Counted from the first letter of the stretch, positions 5,224 through 51,214 are shown. The stretch: DNA of 64,000 bases from Octopus vulgaris (GCA_951406725.2 OX597824.1:31124001-31188000); one strand, 5' to 3'. Program-made: numbers and translations. The notes: generated from the letters alone by a model not told the origin.

Positions 5224-5306
5224 GTGCATAGATTAATTATGGAATTACCAAGACGCAGCCGAATGACTGTGATAATTAGGGGCATTCCAAGATCACCTTG
5301 TCTCAG
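5224..5306 (+). CDS. Galectin-like gene A, 83-nt exon (VHRLIMELPRRSRMTVIIRGIPRSPCL-R)
   Basis: TTTACAG acceptor, AG|GTAAC donor, phase 0 to 2; galectin VxIxGxP..R strand; same length and phases as gene B exon 51132-51214. Confidence 0.85.
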
Positions 5307-6609
5307 GTAACATATTCAACTTAACATCTTTTTCCAAGTAAATGATGATATAATGGTATACGTCCCTGTATGTCTTATTTATCTGTAGGTCTACACTTTA
5401 AAAATACTTCATTTCTTGTTATCATCAGAGAATGTTAATCATTCTCCTATAATTTTACTACTTCTACCTCCAATACCATTAACTTCATACCATCATCTGA
5501 AGTTATACTGAACTATATATATTCAATGAGGACCAGTTGTATCCTTTCCAATTTTATATACAGAATAACTAACTAGGTTAAATTCGGGTTTCTTTTTGCA
5601 TATAATCCTAGGTTTCATCCTCTTTATTGTTATATTATTTGATGTATTTATTGTTTGTGTTAGCTTTACATGAAAAACTGTTTATTATCAGCCTACACGT
5701 TCATAATTATCTGGGCTTGTAATTTTGCTATTTTCATATTCAGTTGTTACGAATTTATAGACATAACTATCAGTCGCGATATGAGTTTTGGTACTCCGTA
5801 AATCAAATATTTATTTACATAGAATGTTTTCCTTTATCGGATTTGAATAAAAAGATTGTATGAATTATTATTACCATTTCTTTGTCTATGAAGAATATTG
5901 ATTTTTCCTCTAGAGGAATGTACTTAATCTTATCCATGATACCCAATACTTTTCGTTATAGTTTACTAGTTGTTTGTTAGCCGACAATTAAAAAATACTG
6001 GTAGAAATATTTCTAACTAGATTACCTATAATATATGAAGGATAATTAGGTAATCTATGGATATATTGTATCCTGGGGTTTGGCTTATCTCTTTTTTTTT
6101 TCTATTATACTTATCATTATTATCTATATAATTTCTAACATGCTACTAATATGCATATTTTCGAAAGGAATTTATGCATTTGAATCTTAATGCCCTTTAT
6201 TTCTCTCCAGAATTCGTCTGTATCATATACATCTACCATTGAGCAATATACCACAATAGCTATTTACATATATATTAGAGGTCAGTGGTGTCAAAAATTG
6301 CTTCGGGCTTCTGCCATTCTTAATTGATTTATGAAAATAAGGAAATTGACCATTAATTATTTTTTGCGTCAACTATCCCATTCTTTCTGTTGATTTTCCA
6401 TGGACCATAGTCTTGAGCTCACAGGTTGAGATTGCTTGGAGATTGGAGGCATGTTCTTAAAGCCAGTGTAACCACGTTTCTTACTGGCATCAAAATATTA
6501 ATAGCTCTTTCTAAGATTCAATGCATATTAAATCTCTCAATGAATGCAATACATTTACTGTCTATCTTAACTTTACAGAACAGCAAACTATGTATGTATG
6601 TATGCATGT

Positions 6610-8780
6610 GTTGTTGTAGAGTACGACGCTTCCTGGCGAGAGTAAACTGAGCCACTACATGTAAAAAGTTGTTGTATGAGTAAGTGAGGATGTTCGTGTC
6701 GGAGAGTAGATCCTGCTAGTTCCACAGCCCGTGTGTTGATAGTTCAAAGTTGGAGTTCAACGTTTACAGTTCGATATAGCGTGTTGGACTGTTGGTTCTT
6801 AAATGATTGTTGTTAAGTTCCGTGTGGTTACTGCCCATTGATTCGATTATTTTGTTATTACCTGTTGCAGTGTATTCGTTAATCCATAAGGATATAACAT
6901 CTGGCGACGAGGATCGTTCGAAACTCACATTGGTTATTTGACAATTTCTGCGTCATGGGAAACCTATTAACCGCAGTATTACAGTTTCAAGAGAAACAAG
7001 AAGAACAACTACAGGGGTTGCAAAAACAAATACTGCAACAACAACAGCAACAAAACAACAATAACAAAAATTAAATGAGTTACTGTCGGGGAAGTCCGAA
7101 AATCCAGTATGCTCGTTTATGCCAGATGGCGTGGCTAACGCAATTTCTGAATCCGGAGGCGGGTATTACGTTTCCAGCGTATTATTGAAGATATGAGGAA
7201 AGTTTTAACAACGAGTTCAAGTCATGGTCGATGAAGCAGAAACTAAGTTTTTTACTACGCAAAGAAGCTCCTACTGAACATGAGCGTTACTGTAACATTA
7301 TTCTGCCAAAAGTCGAGTGAGAATGGCTTTCAAGAAACCGTGGAAGTGCCTTCAAAATTATTTTGTGATAGAAGTTCATTATTCAACAAAAGTACTGTTC
7401 GCGGCAATTAAATCGGTAAATAAAGAGTTGGACAGACTGGAAAAGAGTGGAAGTAGCAGAAAGGAGTCACGGTATGTATTTTTAAAAAATGATAAGATTA
7501 GGCTGTATGACGATTTCACTACAGAATTGGACGACTGCTTAAAAACATGAAGATTGTGTTTAAGAAAATGAAAGTTTTCAGGTTCACTTTGAGTGAAGAA
7601 AAATGCGAATTCTTTCTGCTATAAATTAAGTACTTAGGGCAAATAATTGATAAAAGTGGGAGACGTCCTGACGCGTCGAGGGCAGACGCAATAAGGAATA
7701 TGCCTGTACCGACAAATATTACAACTTTACAAGCATTTCTTGGGCTGGCAAACTATTATCAAAGCTATATTCCTGTTATGCACAAGTTAAGAGCTCTATT
7801 GCACAACTTATTTTAAAAAAAAAAGGAAATAAAGAGTAATTGGTCCACTAAATGCCTGAACACTTTTGAAGAAATTTAAAAATTCTTATCTTAGACGTGT
7901 CGTTAGCACATTACGATCCTGAAATGGACATCATTGTAGCATCTGATGCTTCCGACCACGGATTAGGTGCAGTTCTACTTCATAAATACGAAGACGGAAG
8001 TACAAAACCAGTGGAACACGTTTCGCGGTCGCTAACAGCGGCAGAGAAGAGATATTGTCAAATTGAAAAGGATGCCCTTGCAAATACTTTTGCAGTTAAA
8101 CATTTCACGGGTTTCTGTGTGGCAGAAGTGTTTTTAATTACAAAGAGACCATAAAACTTTGCTGTCGATTTATGGGTAAAAAAAAGGGTTTCCGATTCAT
8201 ACTGCGAATCGTCTGCAACGTTAAGGTGTAATATTACTAAATTATAATTTCAAAATGCAATACATCCCATCGAAAAGAATCGGTCATGCGGACTGGCTTT
8301 CGAGATTATTTCGAAAAATATGGAACTACTAGAACAAACTGTTATAGCCGCACTGCAGGCAGAAAATGAAATTAAAAGTGTTATGTTGAACGTTATCCAA
8401 GAACGTCCAGTCACGGTACAGAATATAAGAATGGAAGCTGTATTACGATGAGTATATTACGAAAATAAAAGAAACTTTAAAAAATTAGCAGAATATAAAT
8501 TCAGAAGCCATTAGTTTTTCAATTGGTGACGAAAGAGTGATGGTTACAAACTAATGTATTGCAACAATTTCCCAACGAACATCCAGGAATTGAAATGATG
8601 AAAGCTGTGGTGAAGAGTTACGTCTACTGGCCGTCTTAGGACCGTGTTATCGAAAACTTGGTGAGAACATGTTGAAGTTGGGTGCTCGCAGCCAAAGCCC
8701 CGCTAGTAAAATATCAATCCTGGCCAGAGACGAAGAACCCATGGTCTAAGTTACACAGTGACTATGCAGGACCGGTAAGT
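6610..8780 (+). mobile_element. Degenerate Ty3/Gypsy LTR retrotransposon (LTR ~6610-6899, gag, RT, RNase H, integrase remnants)
   Basis: TG...CA LTR followed by PBS-like TGGCGACGAG (6902); IKYLGQIID, FLGLANYY, IVASDASDHGLGAVL, SYVYWP, LHSDYAGP; many stops and frameshifts. Confidence 0.9.
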
Positions 8781-9081
8781 AACGAACGATTCGGGTTCCT
8801 GTTGGTATATGTTTTCATTCATGTGCGCTAACTACAGCATTAGAGAATTTCAACTCTTATTTCTAGCAATGTAGGCGTTTCTTAACACCCTAGTCGTATT
8901 TAGTGACATTAAAATTTTCCTTTTTGGTGAAACATTGCAACTTACTGTTCATGTTAATTTTAAGCATATACATTAACAAATCGCTAAATCATCTACTAAA
9001 TCATCTACTAATTTGGATGAAAAAAATATATATGTATACTAATAGAGAAGCAAATCCATAAAAAGGCGAATATCGAGTGGG

Positions 9082-9130
9082 CTTAATTGATGAGGCAACG
9101 GAAATTGCCCAAACTGACGTCAGTATTAAG
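9082..9130 (+). ncRNA. Degenerate type I hammerhead ribozyme
   Basis: Stem I CTTAA/TTAAG; tTGATGA; stem II GGCAA/TTGCC; cAAA; palindromic stem III ACTGACGTCAGT then A. Two core substitutions (C3, G12). Confidence 0.75.
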
Positions 9131-9388
9131 ATTTCTCGAACGGCATTTTTCGGAAGATTCAGGCCCCTGTTATTGCATATGCTTTCATTCATTTTATCTC
9201 ATATTTCTAGCAATTTAGGTGTTTCTTAACACTCTAGTCACATTTAGTGACAATTATAATCCCCCATTTGAGAAACATTGCAACCTACTCTTTATATATA
9301 TATGTGTGTGTGTGTTCCTATATATGCATAAACACATATATATATATAATTATGTTTATAAGTATGTATGTATGTATGTGTGTGTGTC

Positions 9389-9438
<50 letters not shown>

Positions 9439-9442
9439 TACA

Positions 9443-9757
9443 TAATACGAAAAAGAGATCACATTGGAGAAACGATGGTTATGCTATGATCTTCATTGCC
9501 TTACAGCTTTTTCTACTATAAGATGCAGTGGACTTGGAGTTGAGTGGCTGAATAACATCCTGTGGCTTAATCGGCGCCTCCAATATCAAGTCCAACATAT
9601 TTAGGAAAATACCAATTACAAATGTAGGCACTGATTAAGATATAGGATATTCAGCCACTCAAATTCGAGTCCACTGTATCTTATAGTAGAAATAGATGTA
9701 AGATAATGAAGTTCATAATATAACCATCGTTTCTTCTGTGTTGTCTCTTTTTTGTAT

Positions 9758-9759
<2 letters not shown>
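9443..9759. repeat. Imperfect fold-back, arms ~9443-9582 / 9623-9759
   Basis: e.g. TTTCTACTATAAGATGCAGTGGACT vs AGTCCACTGTATCTTATAGTAGAAA; flanked by (TA)n on both sides. Confidence 0.9.
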
Positions 9760-9798
<39 letters not shown>

Positions 9799-10190
9799 CG
9801 TACTTTTATTTAATCTTATTATTTTATTATTTTATAATTATTATATGTGAACTAAGATCTAAAAGTATTAAGTGTGATTGTTTTGTAAAATAGTTTGCAA
9901 CGTAAAATATTAGAGTATAGCTAGTGAAAAGATATGCTATAGTTTATTAATGTTATTCTTAAAGCTAAATTATATCTTCACAGATAAATAGATATTTGTA
10001 TCTATTTACTCTATTTTTTACCTTAGGTTTTTAACATGATAAATGTATTATTGCCACCTGGTCCTACTGTTGAAGTTTCAAATTTAGTTCATGGAGTTTC
10101 TTCTATAAGAACAAACATGATTTAATTTCCTTAAGAAATATTGTTTAATTCTATTAGATTATTTATTTAACTCTTATTCTTATTATTGTT

Positions 10191-10290
10191 GACCTGAGGA
10201 ATGACTACTTTTAAATTGAATTGTTTTTCGACTAAATTTAAATTTAATTGTGGCTCGAATTGAAATTATTGCCATGAAACGTACGTAGTC
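10191..10290 (+). ncRNA. Type I hammerhead ribozyme motif with intact catalytic core
   Basis: GAC-CTGAGGA-ATG...(AT-rich insert)...CAT-GAAA-CGTACG-TA-GTC: CUGANGA, GAAA, palindromic stem III, GUA cleavage triplet, 3-bp stem I. Confidence 0.7.
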
Positions 10291-10906
10291 TTTTTACTTA
10301 TATATTGTTTATTGTTTTTATGATCTAGTTATTTGTTTTATAATATATTTTATTTTTTCTTAATGATTTGGTTTATGTCTATCATTGTTTGAATTACATA
10401 ATAGTGTTTTTTCTCTAATTTATAAATATTATAATTTTTTCCATCGTCTTGACTTAACAGCCCTCATCGTTTGTTTTTACTGCATTATTCTCTTTGCTCT
10501 GTCTTTTACTGTCTTGTTTTGTTCTTACTATCCTGTTCTTGCTACCAGTTTAAACCCCTCCGCAAAAAATCCCAAATTTTATTTAATTTGCTTTGCGGGA
10601 AGAACTGTTTCAACTAAGTCGCGTCTTGTCCTTTGCTTCGAACGTGGAGTAGAGGAAACAGAGACAACTGAAGAAGGGGAATATTCTTTGTGTTGTATGT
10701 CTTGTACTCTGTTTTTTCGTTGTTTGAGTTTTTGTATTTAAGTTTCAAATTGTGTTCGACGTTTTGTTTATGTCTTGTACCCATATATGCATGTATATAT
10801 ACATATAAATGTAGATATGCACATATATGTATGTATATATGCATATATTTATATATTATTTATATTATTATTATATATATATACATACATATAAACATAT
10901 ATAGGA

Positions 10907-10941
<35 letters not shown>

Positions 10942-11194
10942 CTGACACACACACATACGCACACACACACACACACATATATATATAATTAATATACACA
11001 AGATTGAAATGTTTCCCAAAAACGAGGATTATAGTTCATAATATAATCACCATTTTTCGTGTATCATCTCTTTATTTCGCAACCACTCTATTCTCGTTGC
11101 AATTTTTGTGCTGAAACATACTTATATTCAGTTCTACACCGAGTTATTACTCTCGTAGTTCCTAAGCCAAACATACATACATACATACATGCAT

Positions 11195-11294
<100 letters not shown>

Positions 11295-11519
11295 GTATAT
11301 ATACCGAAGATGACGTCCAGAAGACTGGTTCTGTTTCCGCTGTTTAGAAATTATTAAACTGAGTTCTTGCCAGTTTTTAAATACGTTTTTACTGGCAAAT
11401 ATTTCAAAAGAAAGAAGGCTGGGAATACCACCTGATGATCCGAAACGTTAGCTCCGATTACTGGAATAAGGAGTGTTGGTGTGCTCTATGTCTTTATGTA
11501 CATACATGCACAAATGTCT

Positions 11520-11554
<35 letters not shown>

Positions 11555-11599
11555 CAAATCTGTTTCAGTGTGTATATTTATGCTATATTTTCTTTACAG

Positions 11600-11798
11600 A
11601 TTAACTATGAATTTGAGGAATGGTGGCAATATACCTTTACATATGGATATCCGCTTTAACTATCTGAGAAATTGGAAACAAATTATTTTTGACAACTATC
11701 ATGGTGACTTTATTAGACAAGAAAGAATCAATATGTTTCCATTTCAATGTGATGTCCCATTTGAGATTGAGATATATACAACTCGATGGTACTTCAAG
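11600..11798 (+). CDS. Galectin-like gene A, CRD core exon
   Basis: TTTCTTTACAG acceptor, AAG|GTATG donor, phase 2 to 0; LTMNLRNGGNIPLHMDIRFNY...QERINMFPFQCDVPFEIEIYTTRWYFK carries galectin LHxxxRF and FPF motifs. Confidence 0.92.
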
Positions 11799-12439
11799 GT
11801 ATGCCAAATTATTTTCTTATTGACTATAGTAAACGAGGGTGAATGCTGTTGAACACCAACATTTTGTAAAAGGAAATTTTTAGCATATGTGATTTGATGA
11901 AATTAGTAGTGGATTTATCAAAGGTTGCATGTTTGTCAGATGTGTTATTAGTAAAGATTAACAAATTGAAGTAGATATGAACTGAATATAATCAGTTATA
12001 TTTATTCCATATTGTATTACATATTTCAAGGATAAAATTGGAAACATAAATAAATGAATTGAATTGACCGCGTTAAATTCAATGTTTAGATAATGTCAGT
12101 CATCATGACTTCTTATCATCTCAGCAGATATATTATCAGACAAATATTTTCCATTGATCAGGATTTAAAACAATGGGACGTACACATAAATACAAAACAC
12201 CTTTACCCGTCGAGGGCTTATATGCCCCAACACTGAACTATTTTCTTTTGTCAAAACACGGTGATCGCTTATAAGCTTTAAGCTTTAAGCTTACAAATTA
12301 TCGTTATTTACAGAATTGTCACTTGTTACTGCTTTTCACTTCATTGCATATATATATATATCAGGTGATGCTATTAAGTTAGACATGGCCTGGACCAATC
12401 TTTGGTCGAAACATATCTAAGTTTATCTAAGTCTAAGTT

Positions 12440-12488
<49 letters not shown>

Positions 12489-12512
12489 GTGTGTATGTAT
12501 ATATATATATAT

Positions 12513-12984
12513 ATACAAATTAAATTAGAGATAAAACCACTATTAGGCAAATCAAACAGTAAAAAACATAAACCAAAACATAAAAATATATATAATTAAT
12601 ATAACATACAAAATAGATAAAATTTTAAATTAAATCATTTAAAATTTTTAATTTATATTTATAAATTTCTATATTTATATTTTTTAAATTTCAAATTTAT
12701 AAATGGTATAAACTTTTAATTTTTAATTTTTAAAAAATAAATAAATAAATATAAATATTAAAAAATTAAAAGTTTTTAAATTTATAAATTTAAAGAAAAT
12801 ATAAAAAATTTATAAAAATTTATAAATATAAATTAAAAATTTTAAATTTAAATAATTTAATTTTAAATTTTATATTTTATATATTTTGTATATTATATTA
12901 ATTATATTTATTTTTATCTTTTGGTTTATGTTTTTCACTGTTTGATTTGCATAATAGTGATTTTATCTCTAATTTAATTTATAT
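12513..12984. repeat. AT-rich imperfect fold-back (~220-bp arms) with one-sided tail to ~13050
   Basis: AAATTAAATTAGAGATAAAACCACTATTAGGCAAATCAAACAGT vs ACTGTTTGATTTGCATAATAGTGATTTTATCTCTAATTTAATTT; lies between (TA)n tracts. Confidence 0.9.
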
Positions 12985-13047
12985 TTATACTGTAAAATTT
13001 GATTTAATCCTAAATCTAATTTTTCCCTGTAAATTTGGATTTACTTC

Positions 13048-13146
<99 letters not shown>

Positions 13147-13823
13147 CCTAGCACACATCACGCATATTACTGAACGCGAGGTGCACGGTGGTATGCACTT
13201 GTCCATGAAGGCAGGCGGTGTAACTGGGCAAGATGAAGCTTGTAATCAAACTTCATAATTATACATATATACCTACACATGGACTCTGTTATTACATTTG
13301 GGTTGCTTCCATTTGCAAGTGTAGTTCATAGAACCTTACCAAACTTAGTAGACAGTACAGATTGTATTTCGTCTGCGCGAGTAAAATCTCATTGACTTCA
13401 GCTTACGTAGATTTCTTTGGAAAGTGAAGTTCTTAGAGGAATAGGGACATATGAAGAATTGCCATTCTGCGAGTGACAAACCTAATGTAGTGACTTCAGG
13501 ATTCCTTGTACTGCTTGATCCCACTTAACGTTCAATTTTACCTAAATCTATAAATAGAAATTTTAATCCTTACAATGAATTTTTATATGAATTTTTGAAG
13601 AATGGGGCGAGGCATATCCAACTGATCACATCAGACTGGATTTTATTTTTCAGCTTCTACTACACCACTTTCCTCAAATTTGCTGGTATGGAGGTCTCGT
13701 TTGTTATGGGCTTAAATCTCAAATAAAAAGCAATATGTTTTAAATTTATGATGCTTTTCTTATTATATTGATAAAATTTTTGATTTTAAGGAAATTAATT
13801 GTAGCTTTTCTCGTACAATTTAG

Positions 13824-13934
13824 ATTTCTCTTAATGGTATTCTTGCCCACTTCTACAAGAATATACAGCGTGACCTAGTGAAACAACTAGAGATACTGAA
13901 CCAAATTGAGGTTATTGCCGTGGAAATTAAGTGA
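13824..13934 (+). CDS. Galectin-like gene A, terminal exon (ISLNGILAHFYKNIQRDLVKQLEILNQIEVIAVEIK*)
   Basis: TTTAG acceptor, phase 0; continues YFK|ISLNG as in the galectin C-terminal strands; TGA at 13932-13934. Confidence 0.85.
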   Translation: MSLNGILAHFYKNIQRDLVKQLEILNQIEVIAVEIK

Positions 13935-14149
13935 ACCTTTGTTCAAAACTGCCTGTCCTCCTCCTACTATGCTCAGAGAAAATAACTAACACTAAAATAT
14001 TTCGAAACTCTTTACAGTTTGTAGAATTGAAACGATTTGCTAAAATTAGAGTTGATGAAGCCTCCAAATAAATTTGTGACTTTTACATTGTACGATGAAC
14101 GTGATGTTGTTTGTTTTTATTTAAAAGTGTACATACATAAAAAAAACTC

Positions 14150-17100
14150 GTTTCTCTAGCTCCATTTCGTTTCTCAGTCGCTGCTTATATCACCGCCTCA
14201 TCCCTAAATGTTTCCGACTCTGTTTTCACCCCACTCTCTAATCTGCTCCAACCATTCTACCCATACTCCGTACTACATCCTACCGCCTTATGCGTGCCAC
14301 CATTCGCTCTAATCACTCCAAAATACGCACCATCGAAAGTCTTCTCCATCTCGCTTTTTCCATCTTCTCCTCTCAGTCGCCCTCCCATGCCAACACCACA
14401 TTACGTTGCATAATCCATTTAAATCATCTCTTTCATCAATTTCTTGCCAACACCAAACAACATAAACTCCACTCACTCCTCCATTCCATCACACCCGATG
14501 CCACTACCCCAACTCCTCTACTACTCCTCTCCCTCCCTGATACCCTCCCCAACACCCGTCCTCCCAGCCCCAACTCACATACCCCCATCTCCTCCCTCCC
14601 AGCCTTCCACTATACCCACCACCCCTCTTACTTCTACCCCACCGCTCCTCTTAGTTCTATCCCATCCACCCCCTTCACCACTTCAGTCTGTACTTACCAT
14701 TCCTCCAGGTCTTCCCCTCTCTGAGGCGGAGCGCTCCCTCCATGTTAGGTTGTGTGCACTTTTCGGCGACACTTCACCTGCATCTAATGAGGACTACTTC
14801 ACCGACTTGGGCCGCCGACTATCCCAGTGAACGCCAGCTCCTTGCCAGTTCCAAGCAGTCGATCTTTATGCGGGCGCCTGCCAGCGTGCTGTGGACAGGT
14901 TTAACTTTTCTAGGCGTCCCCGTCTTCTAAACGTCTCCCCAGCCGAACTCTCGGCCCTTCGATGTCTCCGACGCCGCACTGACATCGTCATAAAACCGGC
15001 CGACAAGGATGGAGCCGTGGTGGTGTGGCGCGCGGACCTCTACAAGGCCGAAGCTCTCTGCCAACTTCAAGACACCTCCTTCTAATACACTTTACCCTCT
15101 GACCCCATGATCAGCTACCAACAGACGTTGTCCTTCACTATCCATGACCTCATCTCCTCCTCCCGTCTACCCCACCACCTCCAACCTCATTGTCCGCACC
15201 CCTTGCACCCCCACCATTTACTTCCTCCCCCCAATCCACAAACGTAACAACCCTGGCCACCCCATCGTCCTTGCCTGCAACTGCCCCAGCGAACTCGTCT
15301 CCAGATATCTTGACCGTGTCTTTGCCCCCTGGTGGTTTCCCTCCCCTCTCATATCCATGACACCAACTACGCGCTTCGTTTATTCAACTCTTTCTCCTTC
15401 TCTCCTAGCCACTCTAAACTTCTCTTCACCCTCGACATCCAGAGCCTTTACACGGTGATCCCTCACCACGAGGGGATGCATGCACTCCAACATTTCCTTG
15501 ACCTTCGACCCAGCCCCCAACCTGACACATTCACACTAGTTCGTCTGGACGAACTTGTCCTATCAGTGAACTGCTTCTCGTTCGCGGGTGATTTCTACCA
15601 GTAGTCTCGGGAGTGGCCATGGGAACGAGAATGGGCCCCAACTATGCGAACCAGTTCGTTGGCTACGTTGAGGCCTAAATATTCTCAATTTTCACTGGTC
15701 CCACTCCCGAACTATACGGCCGCTATATTGACGACTGTATCGGTGCGACCTCACTTTCACATCTAGAATCCTTCCCCTCTTTTGTCAAATCTTTCCATCC
15801 TGCCCTCCACTTCTCCTGCACTATCTCTGATACCTCTGTCTCCTTTCTTGACATTTCGGTCATCATTCATCACTCCACCCTCACCACCTCCATCCACTAC
15901 AAACACACAGACTCACACTCATACCTCAACTTCTCTTCTTCCCACCCTAAATATACCAAGATTTCTATCCCCTATTCCCAATTCCTCCGTCTAGGAAGAC
16001 TCTGTAGTGACGACCATGACTTTGAGACTCCGTCTCAACTCATGGCTCGCCACTTCAGCCTACGTGGTTATCCCCTCACCACTATCCACACCGCCCTTGC
16101 CAGAGCACGTTCCGTGGACCGTGCATCTGCTCTCTTCCCCCGAACTCGCCCCGCCGTCTCCCGCCTCCCATTTCCCATCACCTACCACCCCACTACCCTA
16201 CTTCTCCAACGCACCATTCTCCGAGCCTTCCGGCGACTTCAGTCCCACCCCTCCACTTCGCACATCTTCCCTAACCGACCTCTCCCCTTCTTCAAACGAG
16301 CTCACAACGTACGAGACCTCTTGGTCGACAGCTTCTTCCCTACACCAACCTCCCAACCCGGCTCATTCTCCTGCTCCCGCCCATGCTGTCGCACTTGCTC
16401 TTACCTCTCCAACATCACCCTCCTCACCAGCACCCATCATCGACCCAATCACATCACCGACTCCTTCACCTGTACTTCTACTGCATCTCCTGCTCTCTCT
16501 GTCATTCTCTCTACATCGGGCAAACGGGACGTCTCTTGGCTGACCGGTTCGCGGAACACCTCCGAGACATCCGACTCGGCAATGACACCCCGATCTCGCG
16601 CCATTTTCGCTCTACCGGTCACTCTTTGTCCGTGTTCGGACTGTCTTTGCATAGGGACCATCCGGACTTCCGCTTGTGCCGTGAACAGGGATTAATCTTC
16701 TCTCTTCGCTCCTTTGCGCCACATGAGCTCAAATCTCCGCCCCTCTTCATCTAACTTCCTCCCCTCGCCTCTCTCCCCCTCACATCTACATCCTCCCATC
16801 ACCTCTCCTCTCTTATGCCGACTCCTACTTCTTCCCTTCACTCCTACTCTCCTTCTTTCTTCTCTTCACTCCCTTCATCGTCACCCCTCCCACGTAAGCC
16901 CATCCCACCCCTACACATTCCAACCCAACCTTCCCTATCCTTCCCCATTCCACACCACACCCACATACCCCACCTTTACCCCCACCCTCCGCCTACCCAA
17001 ACCCCATCTCTACCCCACCCTCCGTCTAACCCACTCCCCACCTTTTCCTCCACTCCCGCCTCCCCCACGTCCCAACACCATCACACCACACCACACCACA

Positions 17101-17530
17101 CCACTATACACACAACCCATCACATCACAACATACGACCTTGCACACATCAGCACTGACCACTTCCCAGATCCACATTTTCACACCTACACATACACACA
17201 CGCAATCGTCAAGATCACCAGTCCTCTTCCACACGCACATATAAACTCTCTCATACACACGCACGCGCACCCTCATGTTGGGATCACCACCACTTTGTTA
17301 TCTCCCCTTCTCCCTAGCTCTCCTGTGTGACCCTTCTGTCCAGCCTTCCCCATGATAGATCGCTAGCCACTACACATTCTTTATTTTCTCTCCTTGTTCT
17401 TTCTGTGTTCCTTTCTGTGGAAGAGTCTAGGCTCGAAACGTTAAATACTTTTTCATTTCCGAGCGTTATACTAATACATCTGTTTGTTGTCTACACCACC
17501 TGTCTTCGTCTTTTGTTTGTTTTTTTGTGA
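14150..17530 (+). mobile_element. Penelope-like retroelement, near full length but disrupted (RT + GIY-YIG + pLTR)
   Basis: IKPADKDGAVVV, FTLDIQSLYTVIPH, GVAMGTRMGPNYAN, RYIDDC, IPYSQFLRL, YIGQTGRLLADRFAEHL; C-rich 3' region; hammerhead-like motif at 17415-17443. Confidence 0.93.
17415..17443 (+). ncRNA. Degenerate minimal hammerhead in Penelope 3' pLTR
   Basis: CTGTGGAAGAGTCTAGGCTCGAAACGTTA matches the PLE pattern CTGANGA-stem II-GAAACGTH with a mutated 5' core. Confidence 0.55.
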
Positions 17531-17538
17531 ATTCTCCC

Positions 17539-17570
<32 letters not shown>

Positions 17571-17589
17571 CATACATACATACATACAT

Positions 17590-23192: not shown

Positions 23193-23312
<120 letters not shown>

Positions 23313-24406: not shown

Positions 24407-24489
<83 letters not shown>

Positions 24490-24510: not shown

Positions 24511-24561
<51 letters not shown>

Positions 24562-38512: not shown

Positions 38513-38834
38513 ATTGAATTTTAAATTAGAAGCAGCCCTGACAATGTAAACATAATCAATGTCACATACTTAATGTATGTATTTTGTTGATATTCTTATT
38601 ATTCGTCCAGGAGAAAGTCCCTTTAAGACGTCGAATATTATAAGAACTTTGAATACCTCAAACCAGGAGAAGCGAACTGACCCGTACGGAAATCAGAGTT
38701 TTTGTAACATTCGACATCTTAAAGGGACTTTTCCTGGAGGAATCTCGCAGCTACTAAGCACATAAACAAAACATACATTATGTGACCTCGGTAACGTTTA
38801 CATAATTAGAGCGGCTTCTAATTTAAAATTCAAT
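38513..38834. repeat. Imperfect fold-back (~140-bp arms)
   Basis: ATTGAATTTTAAATTAGAAGC vs GCTTCTAATTTAAAATTCAAT; TCCAGGAGAAAGTCCCTTTAAGACGTCGAAT vs ATTCGACATCTTAAAGGGACTTTTCCTGGA. Confidence 0.85.
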
Positions 38835-38997
38835 GATGCAAATATTCAGTCCAGATCTCGTAGGCAGTGCATGTAAATAAAAAAAACAATTAAAATTGTT
38901 TTTTAAATGACAGTATTTAATCCCAGCACCAACTTTAGCCACTCTCTCACCTACGCTTTGTGGCAAATTGTATTGTCGTGGTTTATAAACGCTTTGC

Positions 38998-39071
38998 GAA
39001 TTCTGCTTCGCAATGATAGAAAGAGCCGACATCGAAGGATCAAAAAGCGACGTCACTGCGAACACTTGGCC

Positions 39072-39113
<42 letters not shown>

Positions 39114-39396
39114 ACGGCGGACGCATAGGTCGCCGCTGTTCGGAAACGATCGATGGGCCACACTTTCGCGGTCCGTATTCGTACTGAAAATCGAGATCTA
39201 GCGAGCTTTTGCCCTTTTGTTCAACGTGTGGTTTCCGTCCACGCTGAGCTCACCTTGGGACACCTGCGTTACCGTTTGACAGACGTACCGCCCCAGTCAA
39301 ACTCCCCAACCGACACTGTTCTCGACTAAGGGTCGCGCATCGGCTGCGTCGGCACCCGCAAAGGCGCACGACATGCACCACGCGCTTCGCACCAGA
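38998..39396 (-). pseudogene. 28S rRNA: Isolated 28S rRNA fragment (domain V / peptidyl-transferase region)
   Basis: Reverse complement of conserved LSU motifs: GAGCCGACATCGAAGGATCAAAAAGCGACGTC, CAAGCCAGTTATCCCTGTGGTAACTTTTCTGACACC, GTACCGCCCCAGTCAAACTCCCC; only ~400 bp, with substitutions. Confidence 0.95.
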
Positions 39397-39721
39397 TAAT
39401 GAACCTCCATACTATATACAAACAATCTGGATCAGCCATAAGAAAGCTTCAAGTGACACAAATTTTGACCTGAGTGCTTTATGAATGGTTATAAAAATTT
39501 ATTCCTTTGTGTAACTAGCAGGATAAATCAAAACAAACACAAACTTCTTTCATCAAACGCAAAAACTATCAGCAGCATCCCTTCCTCTCTACCAACATCA
39601 TACACTCACAAACTTCTGTTCGTCTCCATCCTAACCATGTCTCCTGTTTGCCTACACTCTTGCTACTTTTTAATTAAACTACGCTAACGGACAAAGGAAC
39701 ACCCTGCAAGGAATAATATAT

Positions 39722-41312: not shown

Positions 41313-41407
41313 ATAACGCTTTAAAAACTACAATATATACTGATCTAATAACCGCTAATAAGTTGGAACTGTGAAGTCCCTCTCAACCATTTCCTACGAA
41401 ATGTACG

Positions 41408-41521
41408 TTAAATATGTACTCCACTAAGACTTGAGTGATCCTTGAATGTAATGTGAAATTCTTTCGCTGGATAACTTGACATAAAACAACCGTTAATAAA
41501 AATACATGTGTATGTATGTGT
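41408..41521 (-). CDS. Galectin-like gene B, terminal exon (THTYTCIFINGCFMSSYPAKEFHITFKDHSSLSGVHI*)
   Basis: IFING..Y...VHI* aligns with gene A ISLNG..Y...VEIK*; nearest in-frame acceptor is (CT)n-CACACATACAG at 41522-41523. Confidence 0.65.
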   Translation of the reverse strand, partial: THTYTCIFINGCFMSSYPAKEFHITFKDHSSLSGVHI

Positions 41522-41544
41522 CTGTATGTGTGAGAGAGAGAGAG

Positions 41545-41585
<41 letters not shown>

Positions 41586-42280
41586 GTGAGTGGCAAAGAG
41601 AGTGAAAATATTTTCATTCGAGTGTGCTTTTGTGCATGCGTGTGCATATATTGTAATATATTAATGACAAATTTTCCGTTCCTAACTATAAATCTAGGTA
41701 GTATCGAAGAAAAAGCTTTACTTGATTTCAATAGTTGTGAGCAGAACTTTTCCCCAAACTGCTATGATGGTCACTTTTTCAAGAATAGCAGGAGATAGTT
41801 TGTAGTCTGTGTAGTGATGTCCATTGGTATAAATCTAGGTTTTGAAATAAAAAGGCAATAAATTTCATTGAAGTCGCAAAATTAATGAATGAAATGTATG
41901 AATAAGGCGAAGCAATGCAGAACACAAAATGAAAATGTGAATACAGTCATATCTAGTACCATTCATCAATAATTCACTGAGAACCAAAAATAATTTGTAA
42001 TGTATTTCTTTTTACTATTTTACAGGTTTTAGTAAGATTATTGAATTGCGATAAACCAATGACGGTATCGATGTCTGCAGTAAAACGGTTATAGTGAATA
42101 ATTTACTGAGACTTATTTTGCTGGTACTGAGGGGATGAATAGAAAACCCATCAGTAGAATTTGAACAGTAAATTAATAGAAGAAATAATAGGGCAACCGG
42201 AATTCTCTAAAGCTGGTAATTGTTTCTAAACCTGCTTTGTCATTTTTACGTGAAAGCAAAATAATATATTTGTATATATT

Positions 42281-43120
42281 TCTTTATTGCCCACAAGGGG
42301 CTAAACATAGAGGGGGCAAACAAAGACAGACAAAGGGATTAAGTCGATTACATCGACCCCAGTGCGTAAATGGTACTTAATTTATCGACCCCGAAAGGAT
42401 GAAGGCAAGGTCGACCTCGGCGGAATTTGAACTCAGAACGTAACGGCAGACGAAATACCTGTTGCTTTATTACCGACAAGGGGCTAAACATAGAAGGGAC
42501 AAACGAGGACAGACAAAGGGATTAAGTCGATTACATCGACCCCAGTGCGTAAATGGTACTTAATTTATCGACCCCGAAAGGATGAAAGGCAATGTCGACC
42601 TCGGCGGAATTTGAACTCAGAACGTAACGGCAGACGAAATACCTGTTGCTTTATTATCGACAAGGGGTTAAACATAGAGGGGACAAACGAGGACAGACAA
42701 AGGGATTAAGTCGATTACATCGACCCCAGTGCGTAAATGGTACTTAATTTATTGACCCCGAAAGGATGAAAGGCAAAGTCGACCTCGGCGGAATTTGAAC
42801 TCAGAACGTAACGGCAGACGAAATACCGCAAATCATTTCGCCCGGCGCGCTAACGTTTCTGCCAGCTCGCCGCCTTAAAATAATATATATTTCTTTATTA
42901 CCCACAAGGGGCTAAACATAGAGGGGACAAACAAGGACTGACAAATGGATTAAGTCTATTACATCGACCCCAGTGCGTAACTGGTGCTTAATTTATCGAC
43001 CCCGAAAGGATGAAAGGCAAAGTCGACCTCGGCGGAATTTGAACTCAGAAAGTAGCGGCAGACGAAATATCGCTAAGCATTTCGCCCGGCGCGCTAAAGT
43101 TTCTGCCAGCTCGCCGCCTT
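42281..43120 (-). mobile_element. Tandem array of four SINE copies (two truncated, two full length)
   Basis: Units start near 42281, 42465, 42649 and 42891; flanked by AAAATA(A/C)TATATTTGTATA at 42258 and 43121 (TSD-like). Confidence 0.92.
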
Positions 43121-43307
43121 AAAATACTATATTTGTATAACCAGCTGAAATCGTGAAGGTTGTCATCTTTGCAATACATTGAATTTTTAATGCCAATATA
43201 ATTTATTTTTCCATCTGTTTACATATATACAATATTCAAATGAAATGTTATATGTAGTCGCTTTCAGATCTTGTCTGCTTTATTACTCAATCAAAACCTA
43301 TAAAACA

Positions 43308-44789
43308 TTAGAGTAATGATTTTTAAAATTTTTTTCTGATATTGAACATGGCCAGGATGACTTGTTATGAGAAATGATGAGAAAACAGTGCCTAGCAGTT
43401 CACTTTTTTAAAAAATCTTTGGGATCTTTTCGGTTTGAACGGCAGTTTTTTCTAGCGGTGTCATGAAATTGTCACCCAATAATTATGACCCTAGTCTCGA
43501 TCTATTGCATTTCAATCTGTTTTAGGGTTAGGGGCGGGGGAAGGGTATCTTTTTTTCTTCAGAAATGTAAATAAACCCAATCTGTTTCTTAAACGAGGGA
43601 CATATTCATACGTCACAGAATGTTTTCAGCTCAATAGACGTCATTGATTGGTTGAAATTGCAGAAATTGAAGAAAACAACAACAAATATCTTACAAACTA
43701 TAGAATTTTCTCAATAAAGCCAAGAGAAAAAGATGTTTTATAAACACATTCTACTAGTATACGAAGTTTAAAAGTGTTTAGTTACGTGGAAATTATTTTT
43801 AAAAAACTGCCGTTCAAACCGAAAATAACCAAACTTTGAAACACCTCCCCCACCAACTAATATTTCTATTTTCAAATGTGTCACACTTGCATTGCCTTAG
43901 TCAAACTCACATTACGTTCGGTATTAGTGCTTCACATTATTTTATTAGATTTAAAGGAGTTTATGACTGAAGTTACTTCCTGGCCAAATGTCAATAACTA
44001 TATACACAGTAGTAAACGTTGCTTCACATTTTGAGTAGTATTATCTGTTGTTGAGATAATTCATGAATGCATTATTCTTTCTATTGCAGATATTAAAATA
44101 TGTTGCTTTAATCAGTGAAATAAAAACATCAATCATGTCATTTAAGCAGACAAGTCAAGCAACTGCAGTAAACAAGAAAAAGTGGCAAAAAAAAATAATA
44201 ATAATTTGAAAAATCTATTAAAAAGCGAAGAATAATACTGAATGTGAAACATGAGTTGACTGAACTAACTAGAATCCCCAGAAAATCCGGTATCACTGGA
44301 AGGTATAATGTATTAGTAAAAGTTTAAAAATCCAGACATGCAAGAAATCAGCTCATTGCTCAGAAACTAGAGAATCTATGGAAAAAAAATTTGATTTTCT
44401 GTATATAACATTAAGGTTTATTGTAAGGAAAGTAAATATTCTGTTGACAAGGTATGATACCCTTTTGAAACGTCCGAACTAGGTCAAAATTTTGAAGATT
44501 TGTTTGACATTACTAATCAACATGGCAGCTGGTTATCTGAAGAAGACAAAGACTTTTACAGTACACAAATTCGAAGTGGCGGTATAAATGGCTACACCAC
44601 ATCTCAGTCAGCTATGGTTCATCCTTCAAAGGGAACATTTTCCTCATCAAGAGTGGCAGATTCATCTTCACAAGCGTTTCTCCCATATGCTGAAGCAGGT
44701 AAAGTAACGTGCCTGAAGAATTCTCAAATATTACACAAATTGTTTTGTATGCATTGATGCCACTAATATGAACTCATTTCTTGCAGATA

Positions 44790-44845
<56 letters not shown>

Positions 44846-46282
44846 GAAACTCCTACTTCTGATTCTGCAGATGAAATCACATTACCAATAGACGGACGAG
44901 TAGGTACCTCTAAACAACAGCATTCAACTCAGAAATCAATGAACTTGCTGAAAAAACAAAAAAGGAATTGAAGCAGTCATAAAGCAGCCAACGTCTACAA
45001 ACAGCTGAGAGAGGAAGGAGTATATCTCCCCACTCCGTCACAGTCAGGGGTGTACAAAGCTGCTATGAGAGAGGCTGCAAAGATGAAGCAGGAACTAAAA
45101 GAAACTTTACAAAAATAACCAGTGGGTGCCCTATTTTGATGGAAAGGTTATAAAGGGTAAAGAACGTTGTTGTGAAAACCAACACAAGAGAAATTAGATT
45201 AGCAGCACTAACTCGAAAAAATGGCAGAGCAGATAGCATTTTTCAAGGACAAAAGGAAGTTTTGGATGATTACGAATTGTGGCCAGTAATCAAAATAATC
45301 ATCACAGACACTTGTAGTGTAAATGCAGGAAAGCATAATGGAGTGGTCATTCAACTTCAGAACGAATTTGTAGAGCGACGATATCCTGCACCTCAATACA
45401 TTGGTTGCCAGCATCATGTATTAGACCGCCTCCTAAAACATGTGATGGATGATACACTGAAAGGAAAACCTGCATCACTTAATATATCATATCCGTTCAG
45501 AGACGATTTAATGAAAAGCTATGAGGATTTGGTGTCAGAATGAAAACACGACGAAACAAAACTTCAAATGGATAATAATCCTGGTTGAAGAGATGATCTT
45601 AAGTTTTCATTTGAACTTGGTCATGCTTTCCGATTTTATCAGCAACAAAGCATTTTCCTAGAAATTAAGTTTAGAAAACTCTCCTAGAATTAGCAATGCA
45701 CGTCGGAATTCACGAGCAATCTTAGCCATTCTCACATACATGCCTCTGCCACAAAATAGAGAAATCTCTACGATGTGTGTTGTTTTATCAGCAGAAACTG
45801 GATGGAAATGTGGTTTTGTGACCAAAGGTTTGACAGCATGGCCTACCAGAAACTTTCAGAAGCAGTTTCTGGAAATACTAAAACAAGCAAATGTTTGAAC
45901 GTTAATTAGAATCTTGAAAAATCAGTGATTCAAGATGTTCAGCGTTCAAATATATGTGCTGAACGTGCAGTAAAAATAATGAGGAATTAGATTGCAGGTC
46001 TTCTGAAAAATTAAATCTACGATTTGTTTTAACCAAGAAGAACCTTTGAAAACTACTGTTGTATTAGTCTGCATTTATTACATTAACAATGCATAACAGT
46101 ACAGTACGTCTTATTACTTGAACAATATATTCATGTCCCGTAGAACAAGTGTTGTCAAATATATTGTCATCGGTGGGGGAGTGTTTTGTGAAAGAAATGA
46201 TTATGATTTTTTTGCCATTATACCATAAAGTTCACCATCTGGTACCATGGCCTTACTCGACTTGAAAAAAATCACCACCCTA
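43308..46282 (+). mobile_element. hAT-superfamily (hATm-like) transposon, disrupted
   Basis: Right end reads TTAGGGTGGTGATTTTT on minus, left end TTAGAGTAATGATTTTT; LYFDGK, ITDTCSVNAG, IGCQHHVLD, NICAERAVK motifs; (TCA)n at 44790-44844. Confidence 0.75.
43421..43830. mobile_element. MITE nested in the hAT element
   Basis: TIRs TTTTCGGTTTGAACGGCAGTTTTTT / AAAAAACTGCCGTTCAAACCGAAAA. Confidence 0.85.
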
Positions 46283-46435
46283 ATAAAACATCTATATATT
46301 TCTCGCTCACGCGGTTACCTTCGTTCAAGTACAACATAGACACTCACAGTGAAACCTGATTATTGCTCCGAAATAAATGAAATAACGATAATTTATAGAT
46401 ACTACTATGAAGAACATAGCAACACCTTCACATAC

Positions 46436-46658
46436 CTTGTAACGATCTAATTCTTCCTGTATTGTTATATTAAATTGCTCACCACAAGTAAATGGGAAAC
46501 GGGAAGATATATTTCCACCATTCCAAAAGCCTTTCACTCTGGTCGCATAAAGAACTTTCTTTCGATTATAAGAATGACTTCCATGAAACCGTATATCAAA
46601 ATGTAAGGCTACATCAGAATAAGTTACACTAATATTATTCATCATATTGAATGCAACT
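46436..46658 (-). CDS. Galectin-like gene B, CRD core exon
   Basis: TTTCAG acceptor, AAG|GTATG donor, phase 2 to 0; [24 protein letters not shown]...[32 protein letters not shown]. Confidence 0.92.
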
Positions 46659-46709
46659 CTGAAACGATATAAAAATAAAGCATGACTCAATTATGTATAT
46701 ATGTATATG

Positions 46710-46756
<47 letters not shown>

Positions 46757-46806
46757 AAGTATATTTGTATATATATATATATGTGTGTGTGTATACATAT
46801 GTTTGT

Positions 46807-46847
<41 letters not shown>

Positions 46848-46850
<3 letters not shown>

Positions 46851-47321
46851 TTTATTTGTGAATTAAGGCTACCATTGGTTTCATGTTAAGAAAAGTAGGA
46901 AAATATCCCAGTGTCTTAACAATTTTTCAAGCCGATCACATGGAAAAAGGTGTTCGCCTGCATTTTGGAAAACAGTCTTTTCTCGTCTACGGTATTTCTT
47001 GTAAATTTACGTAAATGAAATTATGAAACAATGAATTAAGGGGCGTTGCTCTAGGGTGGGGCATCTTTTAGAGTTTGACAAATCCAAGAGAGACAAACTC
47101 TAAAAGATACCACCCTAAAGTAACGTCCCTTGATTCCTTATTTCATGGTTTCCTTGATGTGAATTTACGATAAATCCCGTGAACGAAAAATGATTGTTTT
47201 CCAAAATGGAGGCGAATACCTTTCTCCATGTGATCGGCATGAAAAATTGGTAATAAACTAGGATATTTTACAGCCTTTCTTAACATGAAACTAATGGCAG
47301 CCTTAATTTACAAATAAAGAA
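46848..47321. repeat. Imperfect fold-back, arms 46848-47077 / 47094-47321
   Basis: TTCTTTATTTGTGAATTAAGGCTACCATTGGTTTCATGTTAAGAAA vs TTTCTTAACATGAAACTAATGGCAGCCTTAATTTACAAATAAAGAA; ~16-nt loop. Confidence 0.92.
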
Positions 47322-47459
47322 ATTACATATCAACCAATGTAGTGTTGAGCACTCATTTCATCGTTCGATATTAATCATTTCAGCTCTCCGGTTTTATCCG
47401 GTGTATCAGTGGAATACTAAAAGATGTTAGCTGCACATTAATGGATATGGGTATATTAC

Positions 47460-49498
47460 TATTTATGTATAAGAAAAAGAAGAAAATGGAGAAATTGACA
47501 GATAGATATCAATTTATTGAAACTAATCCAAGTTCGAACAATATCAAACTCATAGAACCTACAATTATTTCCATGTCCAATCAATTAATTCAAATTAGAA
47601 AAATTAAATTAAAGACCCATATTAAATTATAGCTAATTGAATATTTTGTCAGGTTCAGAATTTGATAGAAAAAGGAACTACATCCCAATGTGTTGATATA
47701 TCATTGGTAGACTCAGCATTAAATTCAGATACGTGCGCTTGTGCATTCTAATGTATTTTGAAAAAAAAGTTACTTGTGTATATACTACTTTGTTTTGATT
47801 TATTTATGCATGTGCACTAATAAATCTTCTAACGTACAAAGGGAAACAACCCACGTTGGATCCCATCTTAACCTAAAGACTAGCGGTAGGAACAATAATT
47901 ATAATGAATGTAATTATATAAATAAAAATAGAAATAAGAATAAAAATGAAAGTATATATTGTGATTGCAAATTTAGAAATTACTGTTTGTTTAAAAATTA
48001 TTGCAAGCAAAAAATGTAGTATATAGATGTAAAGTGAAACCTGAAGGTAAAATTATTTCTGTATCGGTTCAACGGAAAATTATGTCAAAACACGTATTGC
48101 TGACCATCAATACATCTTTAATAATAAAAATAAGTCGGCTTATACCAGTCTTAGCAAATTAATTTAGGACTTGAAGGACAAGAATAAAAAGTATAGCATA
48201 AAGTGGGAAATAAGCCATGTAGATACTAATTGTGACCTTTGTATTGAAGAATTATTTCAGATTTTGACTTCTAGACGTAAGCTTCTTACGGGGGGGGGGG
48301 GAATCCTGTGTTCACGCCTGTAAATATGTATTTAATAATTACCATTAAAATAAAATGAAAACGTTACTAAAACAATAAGTTAACTATCTTATAAAACGAC
48401 TATCTAAAAATATGTAGAAAATCATAATTATAATTAAAATAATAAGTAATATTAAAGTAAAAAATACTATGTATTAATTGGATAATGGATTAAATATATT
48501 AACTTTGATTACACTAATATTAATGTGTATTCCTCAATATGTATGTTTTTCTCCTTGTTATAATAAAAATATATATATTGTGCACAAATCTTGATGACGT
48601 AGTGTACAGGTATGATATATAGTAAATAGTTTGAATTCGTCATCATCACGTAGTATGTGGCAAACAATAGATATATTTATGATTTAAATTACATTAAATA
48701 AATTAGTACTTAATTGTTAATACTATTAATTGTAACCAAGAAGCTTAGAAAATAATTCTTAGTCGATATTACAATAAAAAATCAAAGAAAAAATGTATTG
48801 TATACAAGTCTTGCCGATGTAATATGCTGCTACCGTGCTATGAAAACAGACTGAATTTCATCATGGTCATGTTAAATTTCATCATGGTCATGTGATACAT
48901 AGTTAAAGTATGATTTATGTTTTAAATTATAAAAATGAAAATTCAGCATTTAATTATTAATACTGGAGGTTATATCTAGGTGACTTACAATATAATCCTT
49001 AACTGATTAAAAAACTTTACTGACGTTTCGTACTTTCACAAGTAGTAATGAAAATTAGGAATAAATGTTTTTAATTACAATTAACTGTGACAAAATATCG
49101 TTTAGACAATCTAACGGCTCCTTTGTTTTTCAATACATTAACACAGGCATGCGCACAAATAAATTAAAACAAAGTTGCATATATACAAGTAGCGCTTTAA
49201 AAAAAATACATTAGAATGCACAAGCGCACAATCTGAATTTAATGCTGAGTCTATCAATGATATATCAACACATTGGGATGTAGTTCCTTTTTCTATCAAG
49301 TTCTGATCCTGACGAAATGTTCAATTAACTATGATTCAATATGAATCTTTAAATTAATTTTTCTAATTTGAATTAATTGATTGGACATGGAAACAATTGT
49401 AGGTTCTGTGAGTTTGATATTGTTCGAAATTGGATTTGTTTCAATAAATTGATATCTATCTGTCAATTTCTCCATGTTCTTTTTCTTATACATGAATA
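47460..49498 (+). mobile_element. Penelope-like GIY-YIG remnant bracketed by ~350-bp inverted repeats
   Basis: Arms ~47460-47815 / 49147-49498; internal CDCKFRNYCLFKNYC, VVYRC, CIGSTENYVKTRIADH, CDLCIE at ~47950-48250. Confidence 0.85.
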
Positions 49499-51131
49499 CA
49501 TACATATGTGTGTGTGTGTTTATTTATGTATGTATGTATACATGTAGATATATGGACATGTATCAAGTAGTGGGGAATGTAGATGATCTAGCGAGTAATT
49601 TGTTAGCGACTCCAACGCATATTTGGCTAACCGTACTCAGGAAGGGTACATTATTTCAAACTATCATTCAATAGGTAAGTATAACAGACAGTGGAATGCA
49701 AACGGTTGTATATTGATATTAATCATTCTGTGCATCCATTTATGTGATAACAAATGCCGTACATTTTACGTGGTGTATAAAATAATAAAGGAATATGAAT
49801 GGACAGCTCAACTTATACCATGTACATTTCCATAGCACGGCTATTTATTCAATAACTGTTAGTAATATTACATAATATTTCATATGTTACATTATTACAT
49901 AACCACACAATTTCTTCGGGTAGTATTGAACATATTATTAGTGAAATCCATGTGTGAAGAAAATTGTTAAAATTAAATAATGAATTTAGAAGGTTCTTTA
50001 GAAAAAAACAGTCAATAAAAGCACTTCAGTTGGGATGCGAAAATTGAATTACAATCAATCAACAAGTTTTATTTTCAGAGAGAAGTTGTAGTCATAGTAA
50101 TAATGGTAGATTTTGCTGGTTGACAAGGAAGTAGTTTATTCTATATCCGTTCATTGAATAAATTCATTTATCAACCAAGAGTTTATCAAGAGCACTTACA
50201 GCAATAAATTATTTGATTAAACAATAGCGCTTAAAGCAAATTTGGACAACGAAGGAATAGATATGCAGACAATGAGCTGTTATTTGTCCGCCAATCGTCT
50301 ACACGTATCAGTAAATAATTTGTTTGCTGATTCCTGTAAATAAAATCTTATACTCTTATAAGATTCATCGGTCCAGCTGTGGGGTTACCTCAACTAAGGT
50401 GACACACAATCAGCCCAAAATACCGCGATGTTTTGAAGTATCATTTCATCTGTAATCCAGTGGATCACATATGCTATGGACTCACGTCACCAAAACAGAA
50501 GATGCGCTCTCCTGTGGCGATAAACAACAGTGATCAGGTATTCACGTTCAATCTGCCACAAGGTGTTTAGAATAAAAAGATAGGTTGTTGTTTAGATTCT
50601 CGTTCTGTGTTCACATGAATTATTGCAATGTAGATTTTTTCTCAAAGTTCCTTAATTTTTCTCTTCCATTAGCTGAATGACTTTTCGTACAACTTTTTAA
50701 AAATTGTTTTAAAGTCTCTAACATTATTTGAGAAAGAATAATTCTCGGTGAAGTGTAAGAAAATCAGGCTTTTGTTTTTGTTTACCTTCAGAAGGTGGGA
50801 TGCAAGAATGTCTCAAAGATTTAAAGTGATGAACCTTTGACCATGGAAGTGTTATGGTCTCAACTCTCACAGCATTTCTGCTATATATTTTAGCAGGAAA
50901 GTAAGTCTGCCAATTCTATAAACAATAGATTCCAATTCAAATTCAGACTTAAATAGTTTCTAATAAAAAGGACTTTTAATTGAAAAATATTTGCTACATC
51001 AATACCACGACCTACTTTATTCAAACAAAAACTGTAAATACGAGAGCAAAATATACTATAAATGACCTGTTGCATAATATATTTTGTCATCGTTATTTAT
51101 AGCAAAAGAAATGTCTAGTAAGAATTGTTAC

Positions 51132-51214
51132 CTTGTGCAAGGATTCACGAAACGACCCAAATAGGTCACTCTTCTATTTTTACCTGGTGGTAAATATGCA
51201 TCCATCATAACTGG
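51132..51214 (-). CDS. Galectin-like gene B, 83-nt exon (PVMMDAYLPPGKNRRVTYLGRFVNPCT-R)
   Basis: TTTTCTTTTCTATACAG acceptor, AG|GTAAC donor, phase 0 to 2; matches the gene A 83-nt exon. Confidence 0.88.

Follow-up and report, generated by a model that had tools for sequence, protein, structure and literature searches.

A stretch of 64,000 nucleotides of the Octopus vulgaris genome (GCA_951406725.2, OX597824.1:31124001-31188000; hereafter, the window) contains two convergent genes, gene A on the + strand and gene B on the - strand, which are real single-domain galectin-like genes and which share a pair of cysteines that is rare among galectin domains. The reading to which we give a slightly better than even chance is that A and B are an old duplicate pair encoding secreted, disulfide-bonded proteins, with a degenerate sugar-binding site in gene B.

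According to this reading, a single galectin domain, similar to the C-terminal one of invertebrate tandem-repeat galectins such as the public protein P0047, would have been duplicated long ago, and the two copies, A and B, would have diverged fast. The addition of a 5' exon encoding a signal peptide would have directed the gene B protein into the endoplasmic reticulum (ER), where it would be N-glycosylated, and on to classical secretion. In the oxidising ER, an intradomain disulfide between C80 and C140 would link the loop that follows strand F2 with the one that precedes strand F3, and the same cysteine pair in gene A would probably form the same bond. The gene B protein would most likely no longer bind lactosamine in the usual way and would instead serve outside the cell, in recognition or in the matrix, with a different ligand.

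Exons of the two genes

Both genes have a carbohydrate recognition domain (CRD) encoded by three exons. In gene A (+), the first CRD exon lies at 5224-5306, with its cysteine codon at 5299-5301; the core, or W, exon (199 nt, F4-type end, HxDxRF motif) lies at 11600-11798, with its cysteine codon at 11748-11750; and the third CRD exon lies at 13824-13934, ending in TGA. In gene B (-), a first coding exon (59555-59394; 53 of 54 residues match the public protein P0001) is followed by the first CRD exon (51214-51132, which contains C80), the core exon (46658-46436; 223 nt, F4-type end, C140, and three sequons), the third CRD exon (41834-41722), and, in the P0001 model, a last exon at 35865-35757 (clean acceptor; 35 of 35 residues match). 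As a preliminary description of this DNA had proposed, the first CRD exons are both 83 nt long with phase 0-2 and a GTAAC donor, both core exons end in K|GTATG, and the two genes, despite their low identity, keep cysteines in SPCLR/NPCTR and in FPFQC/FPFTC. The exon that it took to be terminal opens with IxxNG in both genes but is internal in the P0001 version of gene B; the facing stops, which it placed ~27.5 kb apart, are separated by 27,783 bp if the read-through stop of gene B (41720-41718) is used and by 21,822 bp with the P0001 stop.

P0001 has 229 residues and is annotated as 'galectin-4-like [Octopus sinensis]'. The core exon of gene B is identical to part of this protein, and five exons in the window rebuild it with one substitution (228 of 229 residues identical), the third CRD exon (Pfam E 0.0033) being spliced at 41722, via an AA|GTAAAG donor, to the exon at 35865-35757. 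The latter encodes a tail of 35 residues that includes a sequon, C222, and a predicted helix (residues 208-221, pLDDT about 65). The P0007 model, which is 82% identical to gene B, likewise joins the first coding exon to the 83-nt exon; a fragment, P0015, is 65% identical. There may also be a short form of gene B that ends at the read-through stop. In a word-indexed search, P0001 matched itself only, which is weak evidence; an atlas comparison of the whole protein gave generic galectin clusters, and one of residues 1-56 gave no usable match. A hydrophobic 49-nt stretch at 51356-51308, considered as a leader exon, is absent from the public model and was dropped. The last intron of the P0001 model contains a 661-nt fragment of large-subunit ribosomal RNA (38890-39550, -; RF02543, 288.7 bits).

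One public run, X1, which is presumed, not documented, to be RNA, shows gene A in spliced form; another run, X4, gave no contigs here. In the 1.9-kb stretch examined, the coverage by X1 contigs is confined to 5224-5306, and one contig continues past 5306 with 9 letters that match the start of the core exon (by eye). These observations support the 83-nt exon, which came out at the top of 72 candidates by a narrow margin (12.3 vs. 10.8). The core exon scores 24.4 bits with PF00337 (cut-off 22.1) and has galectin-3 as its best match in the PDB. Among 342 acceptor candidates, the third exon comes first, with a score of 20.0 compared to -6.1 +/- 5.7 (six near relatives); it is missed at E<=5 by the background profile of exon 3. 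It is probably terminal: an AATAAA at 14067, downstream of the stop, fits a real 3' end, no convincing candidate for a fourth exon was found, and a weak donor-like AA|GTGAAC stands where gene B splices. No longer protein matching the core exon was found, which again is weak evidence. X1 shows two different upstream partners of the 83-nt exon, of about 69 and 298 letters, which suggests either alternative first exons or two similar genes; neither was found within the window, so the start of gene A and any leader lie outside it.

Variation is locally high around the 83-nt exon of gene A, at 5201-5332. In X2, a DNA run, the exon is overlapped by two half-depth contigs, with 0 and 14 differences in 132 letters, and 5432-5815 is covered by a single contig at full depth; the contig with 14 differences may represent either a divergent allele or a piece of a further copy. 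A dip in the depth of run X3 over the exon is not taken as a finding. The longest X1 contig of this exon has four differences, and all three of the variants that could be placed alter a residue. One A-to-G change there occurs in X1 only, where an allele and editing are indistinguishable.

Membership of the galectin family

The spliced products of A and B, of 130 and 140 residues, have 40 of 149 aligned columns in common, and their local alignment score is 99, compared to 27.7 +/- 4.7 (maximum 53) in 2000 shuffles. The core exons of both lie above the Pfam Gal-bind_lectin cut-off, and their PDB matches are galectin-3 or congerins. In the AlphaFold model of gene B, the CRD has a pLDDT of 81-97 by block, and Foldseek gives TM scores of 0.79-0.90 by target with galectin-3, -4, -8, -9, and -10. 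The beta-sandwich of about 130 residues that characterises a galectin CRD is thus represented in gene B by the modelled fold and in gene A by the Pfam match of the core exon. Where a tandem-repeat galectin has two CRDs, P0001 has one Pfam galectin stretch; in gene A, a further CRD may lie upstream of the window. GREPs, galectin-domain proteins of snails, carry immunoglobulin (Ig) domains. In gene B, the 35 residues between the leader and the CRD have no Ig match and do not give the GREP order of Ig before galectin domain.

The strand names F2, F3, and F4 are used here in what we take to be the usual galectin topology. The exon boundary of gene B at K156|I157 falls within strand 154-159, as in an F4-type CRD. 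A CRD of three exons, with a W exon ending in strand F4, is the standard F4-type arrangement (PMC5751359, PMC3396283). This layout is generic and does not, on its own, prove that A and B are paralogues.

A rare cysteine pair and a predicted disulfide

The background for the cysteines consisted of 150 proteins found with gene B, 147 of which gave 499 CRDs. With P0015 excluded, both sites were filled in 483 domains: a cysteine was present at site 1 in 44, at site 2 in 6, and at both in just 1, compared to 0.55 expected. The pair is therefore rare, and the Cys-Cys combination is not enriched elsewhere. Two separate orthologue fragments of gene B each keep one of the cysteines: C80 is present in P0007, and C140 in P0015. 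Both cysteines persist despite roughly 2 changes per site along the branch between A and B, which suggests selection.

The preliminary description had proposed that the two cysteine-bearing loops are neighbours in the galectin sandwich. Indirect support comes from the AlphaFold model of gene B, in which C80 follows strand 68-76 and C140 precedes strand 143-150, each in a loop, and from a mean-field coupling analysis of 498 background galectin domains. In the latter, positions 80 and 140 co-vary (rank 86 of 7297 pairs), with 80 as the best partner of 140, and the couplings 74-144, 69-147, and 73-145 show that the strands flanking the two loops pair with one another. The rank of 80-140 was 84 without P0061 and 141 without all of the domains that have a cysteine at either site. 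Among the top 90 coupled pairs, 32 join neighbouring strands, compared to 466 of 7297 overall. Sites 80 and 140 are, on this modelling, probably close together, and a C80-C140 disulfide is likely in a secreted gene B protein, with the proximity of the cysteines coming from the coupling rather than from coordinates. An internal disulfide is probably to be expected in both the A and B proteins.

Probable common origin of the two genes

A two-residue shortening gives A and B, positioned by the start of the exon, a spacing of 18 residues before the F2 glycine. This spacing occurs in 2 of 271 anchored domains, one of which is the P0047 C-domain, compared to 244 with a spacing of 20. A and B also have 8 rare residues in common, the means being 2.3 and 2.0; 4 of 498 domains reach this number with A, and 1 of 498 with B. 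The short spacing and the shared rare residues favour a common origin, of which we are fairly confident. The third exons end alike, with EIK at the same place. A quick tree of 107 rows (excluding P0080, a near-copy) places A, B, and P0015 together with the P0047 C-domain and P0142, in a group of five rows (SH-aLRT 82). In a more careful tree of 32 rows, selected from this result, A and B form a clade, with weak support. When A is left out, gene B joins the P0047 C-domain, P0142, and P0080 at 97/98.

Probable leader, secretion, and glycosylation of gene B

The N-terminus of gene B has the highest 10-residue hydropathy of 142 proteins starting with Met, and that of P0007 the third highest. Residues 1-19 resemble a signal peptide, and in P0001, P0007, and P0052, the residues at what are likely to be -3 and -1 are small (by eye). 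On the basis of hydropathy, and of a pattern kept in two other sequences, gene B does not conform to the description of galectins as proteins with no signal peptide. Its CRD contains three sequons, a number found in 20 of the 499 other domains, and all three are kept in P0015 (by eye). Gene B appears, then, to enter the classical secretion route, with a leader that, judging from its sequence, would be cleaved. Passage through the ER had been proposed for both genes; the hydrophobic N-terminus and the sequons kept in P0015 support this for gene B, and gene A may take the same route.

The leader is followed, in all three of the N-terminal sequences (P0001, P0007, and P0052), by C-x8-C, within a helix in the first coding exon of gene B, and then by RIRR or RIRK (59394-59500, - in the window), a dibasic motif that we take to be a possible convertase site. 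The C-x8-C pair and C222 make three cysteines outside the CRD of gene B, so one may be free or form a bond between chains.

A bolder version, which is probably wrong as a whole, might be envisaged. In this version, A and B would belong to an octopod-specific family of secreted, glycosylated galectin-fold proteins that had acquired a new intradomain disulfide, lost lactosamine binding, and evolved fast in self/non-self or gamete recognition; the gene B precursor would lose its C-x8-C peptide at the dibasic site, and the first CRD exon of gene A would have balanced divergent alleles.

The sugar-binding site

The canonical binding positions are H44, N46, R48, N61, W68, E71, and R73 (PMC5297725). 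At these seven positions, gene B has H, D, R, A, W, G, and I, which means that three are kept (H, R, and W) and that the equivalents of N61, E71, and R73 are lost. Gene A has H, D, R, D or N, F, Q, and R; it keeps H, R48, and R73, together with N61 in one of two alignments, and more of the site than gene B. The residues replaced are common ones: N61, present in 444 of 499 domains, and E71, present in 424, are replaced in both gene B and P0015, and W68, present in 458, is replaced along with E71 in gene A. At the N46 position, 42 of the 499 have Asp. Since neither gene has the full set of binding residues of the galectin signature, both are galectin-like rather than shown galectins. To judge from these residues, the loss of normal lactosamine binding is likely for gene B and uncertain for gene A.

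Alternative explanations

Several observations weigh against the idea of a secreted, disulfide-bonded pair of duplicates. The five-exon structure of gene B comes solely from gene models, and its leader, which lacks a basic n-region, was judged from hydropathy alone. The sole other domain with both cysteines belongs to P0061, a tandem galectin without a hydrophobic N-terminus; site 1 alone is a cysteine in 9% of domains and hence needs no partner; and no single orthologue among the sequences compared shows both cysteines, even if each is kept in one fragment. The rank of the 80-140 coupling ranged from 63 to 938 in eight 70% subsamples and from 214 to 938 in seven of the eight. As to gene A, its CRD has no sequon, and its signal peptide is unseen, the 5' exons being beyond the window.

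These last points raise the possibility that only B is secreted and disulfide-bonded, and that A is a leaderless, cytosolic protein in which the cysteines were kept by descent as free or redox-sensitive thiols. This explanation, which we consider rather unlikely, would fit with the lack of a convincing candidate for a signal exon at 1-5200, with the larger number of sugar-binding residues kept in gene A, and with P0061, which has both cysteines and no leader. However, gene A has 5' exons outside the window, in at least two upstream forms, one of which reads AYDGDYLSD in frame and loosely resembles the end of the first exon of gene B (9 residues, no statistics). Moreover, the survival of both cysteines across the long branch between the genes suggests selection.

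Another explanation is that A and B derive from different galectin domains, the cysteine pair having arisen by convergence after secretion or by chance, and their grouping in trees being due to long-branch attraction. The best matches of gene A are generic galectins rather than gene B, and A and B rank only 42 and 73 of 500 in each other's comparisons by identity. The careful tree puts A and B, with P0015, in one clade, but with a support of 73/59 and a long-branch warning. When gene B is removed, gene A leaves the P0047 group, which it joins in 0 of 200 bootstrap trees. The exon layout, too, is generic (PMC5751359). Against this, the two genes lie within 22 kb of one another and share the 83-nt exon length, the 18-residue spacing found in 2 of 271 domains, the 8 rare residues, and the EIK end of the third exon. 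When gene A was constrained into the P0047 group, the tree was 1.65 log units better than that of the free search (p-AU 0.655), so this placement is not rejected. Separate origins therefore seem quite improbable to us, and the paralogy of A and B is likely, short of proven.

Finally, A and B might still be ordinary beta-galactoside lectins with a shifted specificity, the cysteine pair only stabilising them; both keep the H and R of HxNxR, gene B keeps W, Asp at N46 also occurs in the modelled site of a sponge galectin (PMC13084444), and not all eight binding residues are essential (PMC5297725), but the replacement of N61 and E71 in B and P0015, and of W68 and E71 in A, would make this very improbable.

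Surroundings

The pair had also been suggested to be part of a larger cluster, and here no third galectin core exon turned up in the window. A tblastn search of the 64 kb with 151 proteins gave no third copy, and neither did exon profiles run over 2304 segments of the window, which exclude core exons only; the profile of the first CRD exon detected even A and B poorly. The first intron of gene B contains a relic of a reverse transcriptase with a PHD finger (55632-56291, -), and a relic of a Mos1-type transposase helix-turn-helix lies upstream of gene A (1588-1713, +). Other transposon relics are at about 6600-8800, 14300-16700, and 62100-64000 (by eye), and 15410-15601 has no Pfam match. Among the public proteins, P0078 (752 residues) has two galectin domains, a signal-peptide-like start, and neither cysteine, and might be another leader-bearing galectin. 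P0002-P0005 have 2490-3840 residues, with 18-23 matched galectin stretches each.

Comparison with known systems

Galectins are a textbook case of lectins that carry no leader, no glycans, and no disulfides, and the reason for which they bypass the ER has yet to be settled. If the reading of A and B as a secreted, disulfide-bonded duplicate pair is true, a galectin lineage would have acquired a leader, glycans, and a disulfide, along with a loss of binding residues. Such a lineage would directly test whether passage through the ER and the loss of lactosamine binding go together, and gene A, with more of its site intact, would be the natural comparison for gene B.

Galectins are normally described as having no signal peptide (PMC13084444, PMC3396283, PMC8878817, PMC11934519, PMC8497297) and typically no native disulfides (PMC13084444, PMC3396283). 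Those of Lophotrochozoa are mostly leaderless, with two or four domains (PMC8878817), although single-CRD forms are also allowed (PMC5877582). In cephalopods, one galectin transcript has been annotated in octopus haemocytes (PMC4199593), a 'galectin-3' increases in the oviducal gland of O. maya when fertilisation takes place (PMC8976471), and a galectin is known from squid haemocytes (PMC3349304); these may or may not correspond to A or B. In the literature searched, which included few subscription papers and no supplements, no description of a secreted octopus galectin or of these genes was found.

With the F4-type galectins of PF00337, A and B share the Pfam match and the three-exon CRD, and B also the fold. 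Gene B differs from typical galectins in its leader-like start, its sequons, its N- and C-terminal helical extensions, and its degenerate site. The C-terminal CRD of the P0047 type has the HxDxRF motif and the 18-residue spacing in common with gene B; unlike gene B, P0047 is leaderless, has a second CRD and an intact site, and lacks both cysteines.

GRIFIN and GRP (HSPC159) are vertebrate, leaderless proteins. They have the galectin fold with lost binding residues, which has been read as co-option (PMC3396283); their loss of carbohydrate binding is experimental, whereas for gene B, it is predicted from the sequence, and for gene A, it is uncertain.

The sponge galectins of Geodia cydonium and Chondrilla australiensis (hRTL), which count among the nearest precedents along with GRIFIN, GRP, and the snail GREPs, have a single CRD with a cleaved leader, and one sponge galectin has Asp at the N46 position, as do A and B (PMC13084444). 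CchG-1 of Cinachyrella does have a disulfide, but between subunits (PMC13084444). The sponge galectins bind sugar, and their likeness to the octopus genes is one of description. In snails, the GREPs are plasma proteins with a galectin domain, named alongside FREPs and CREPs (PMC8995041, PMC8878817); they have been reported only in Heterobranchia (PMC8878817), whereas gene B has, according to Pfam, a galectin domain alone. A and B are thus unusual additions to the known galectin family, with precedents in sponges and snails, and since such exceptions are already known, they would add an independent case rather than a new principle.

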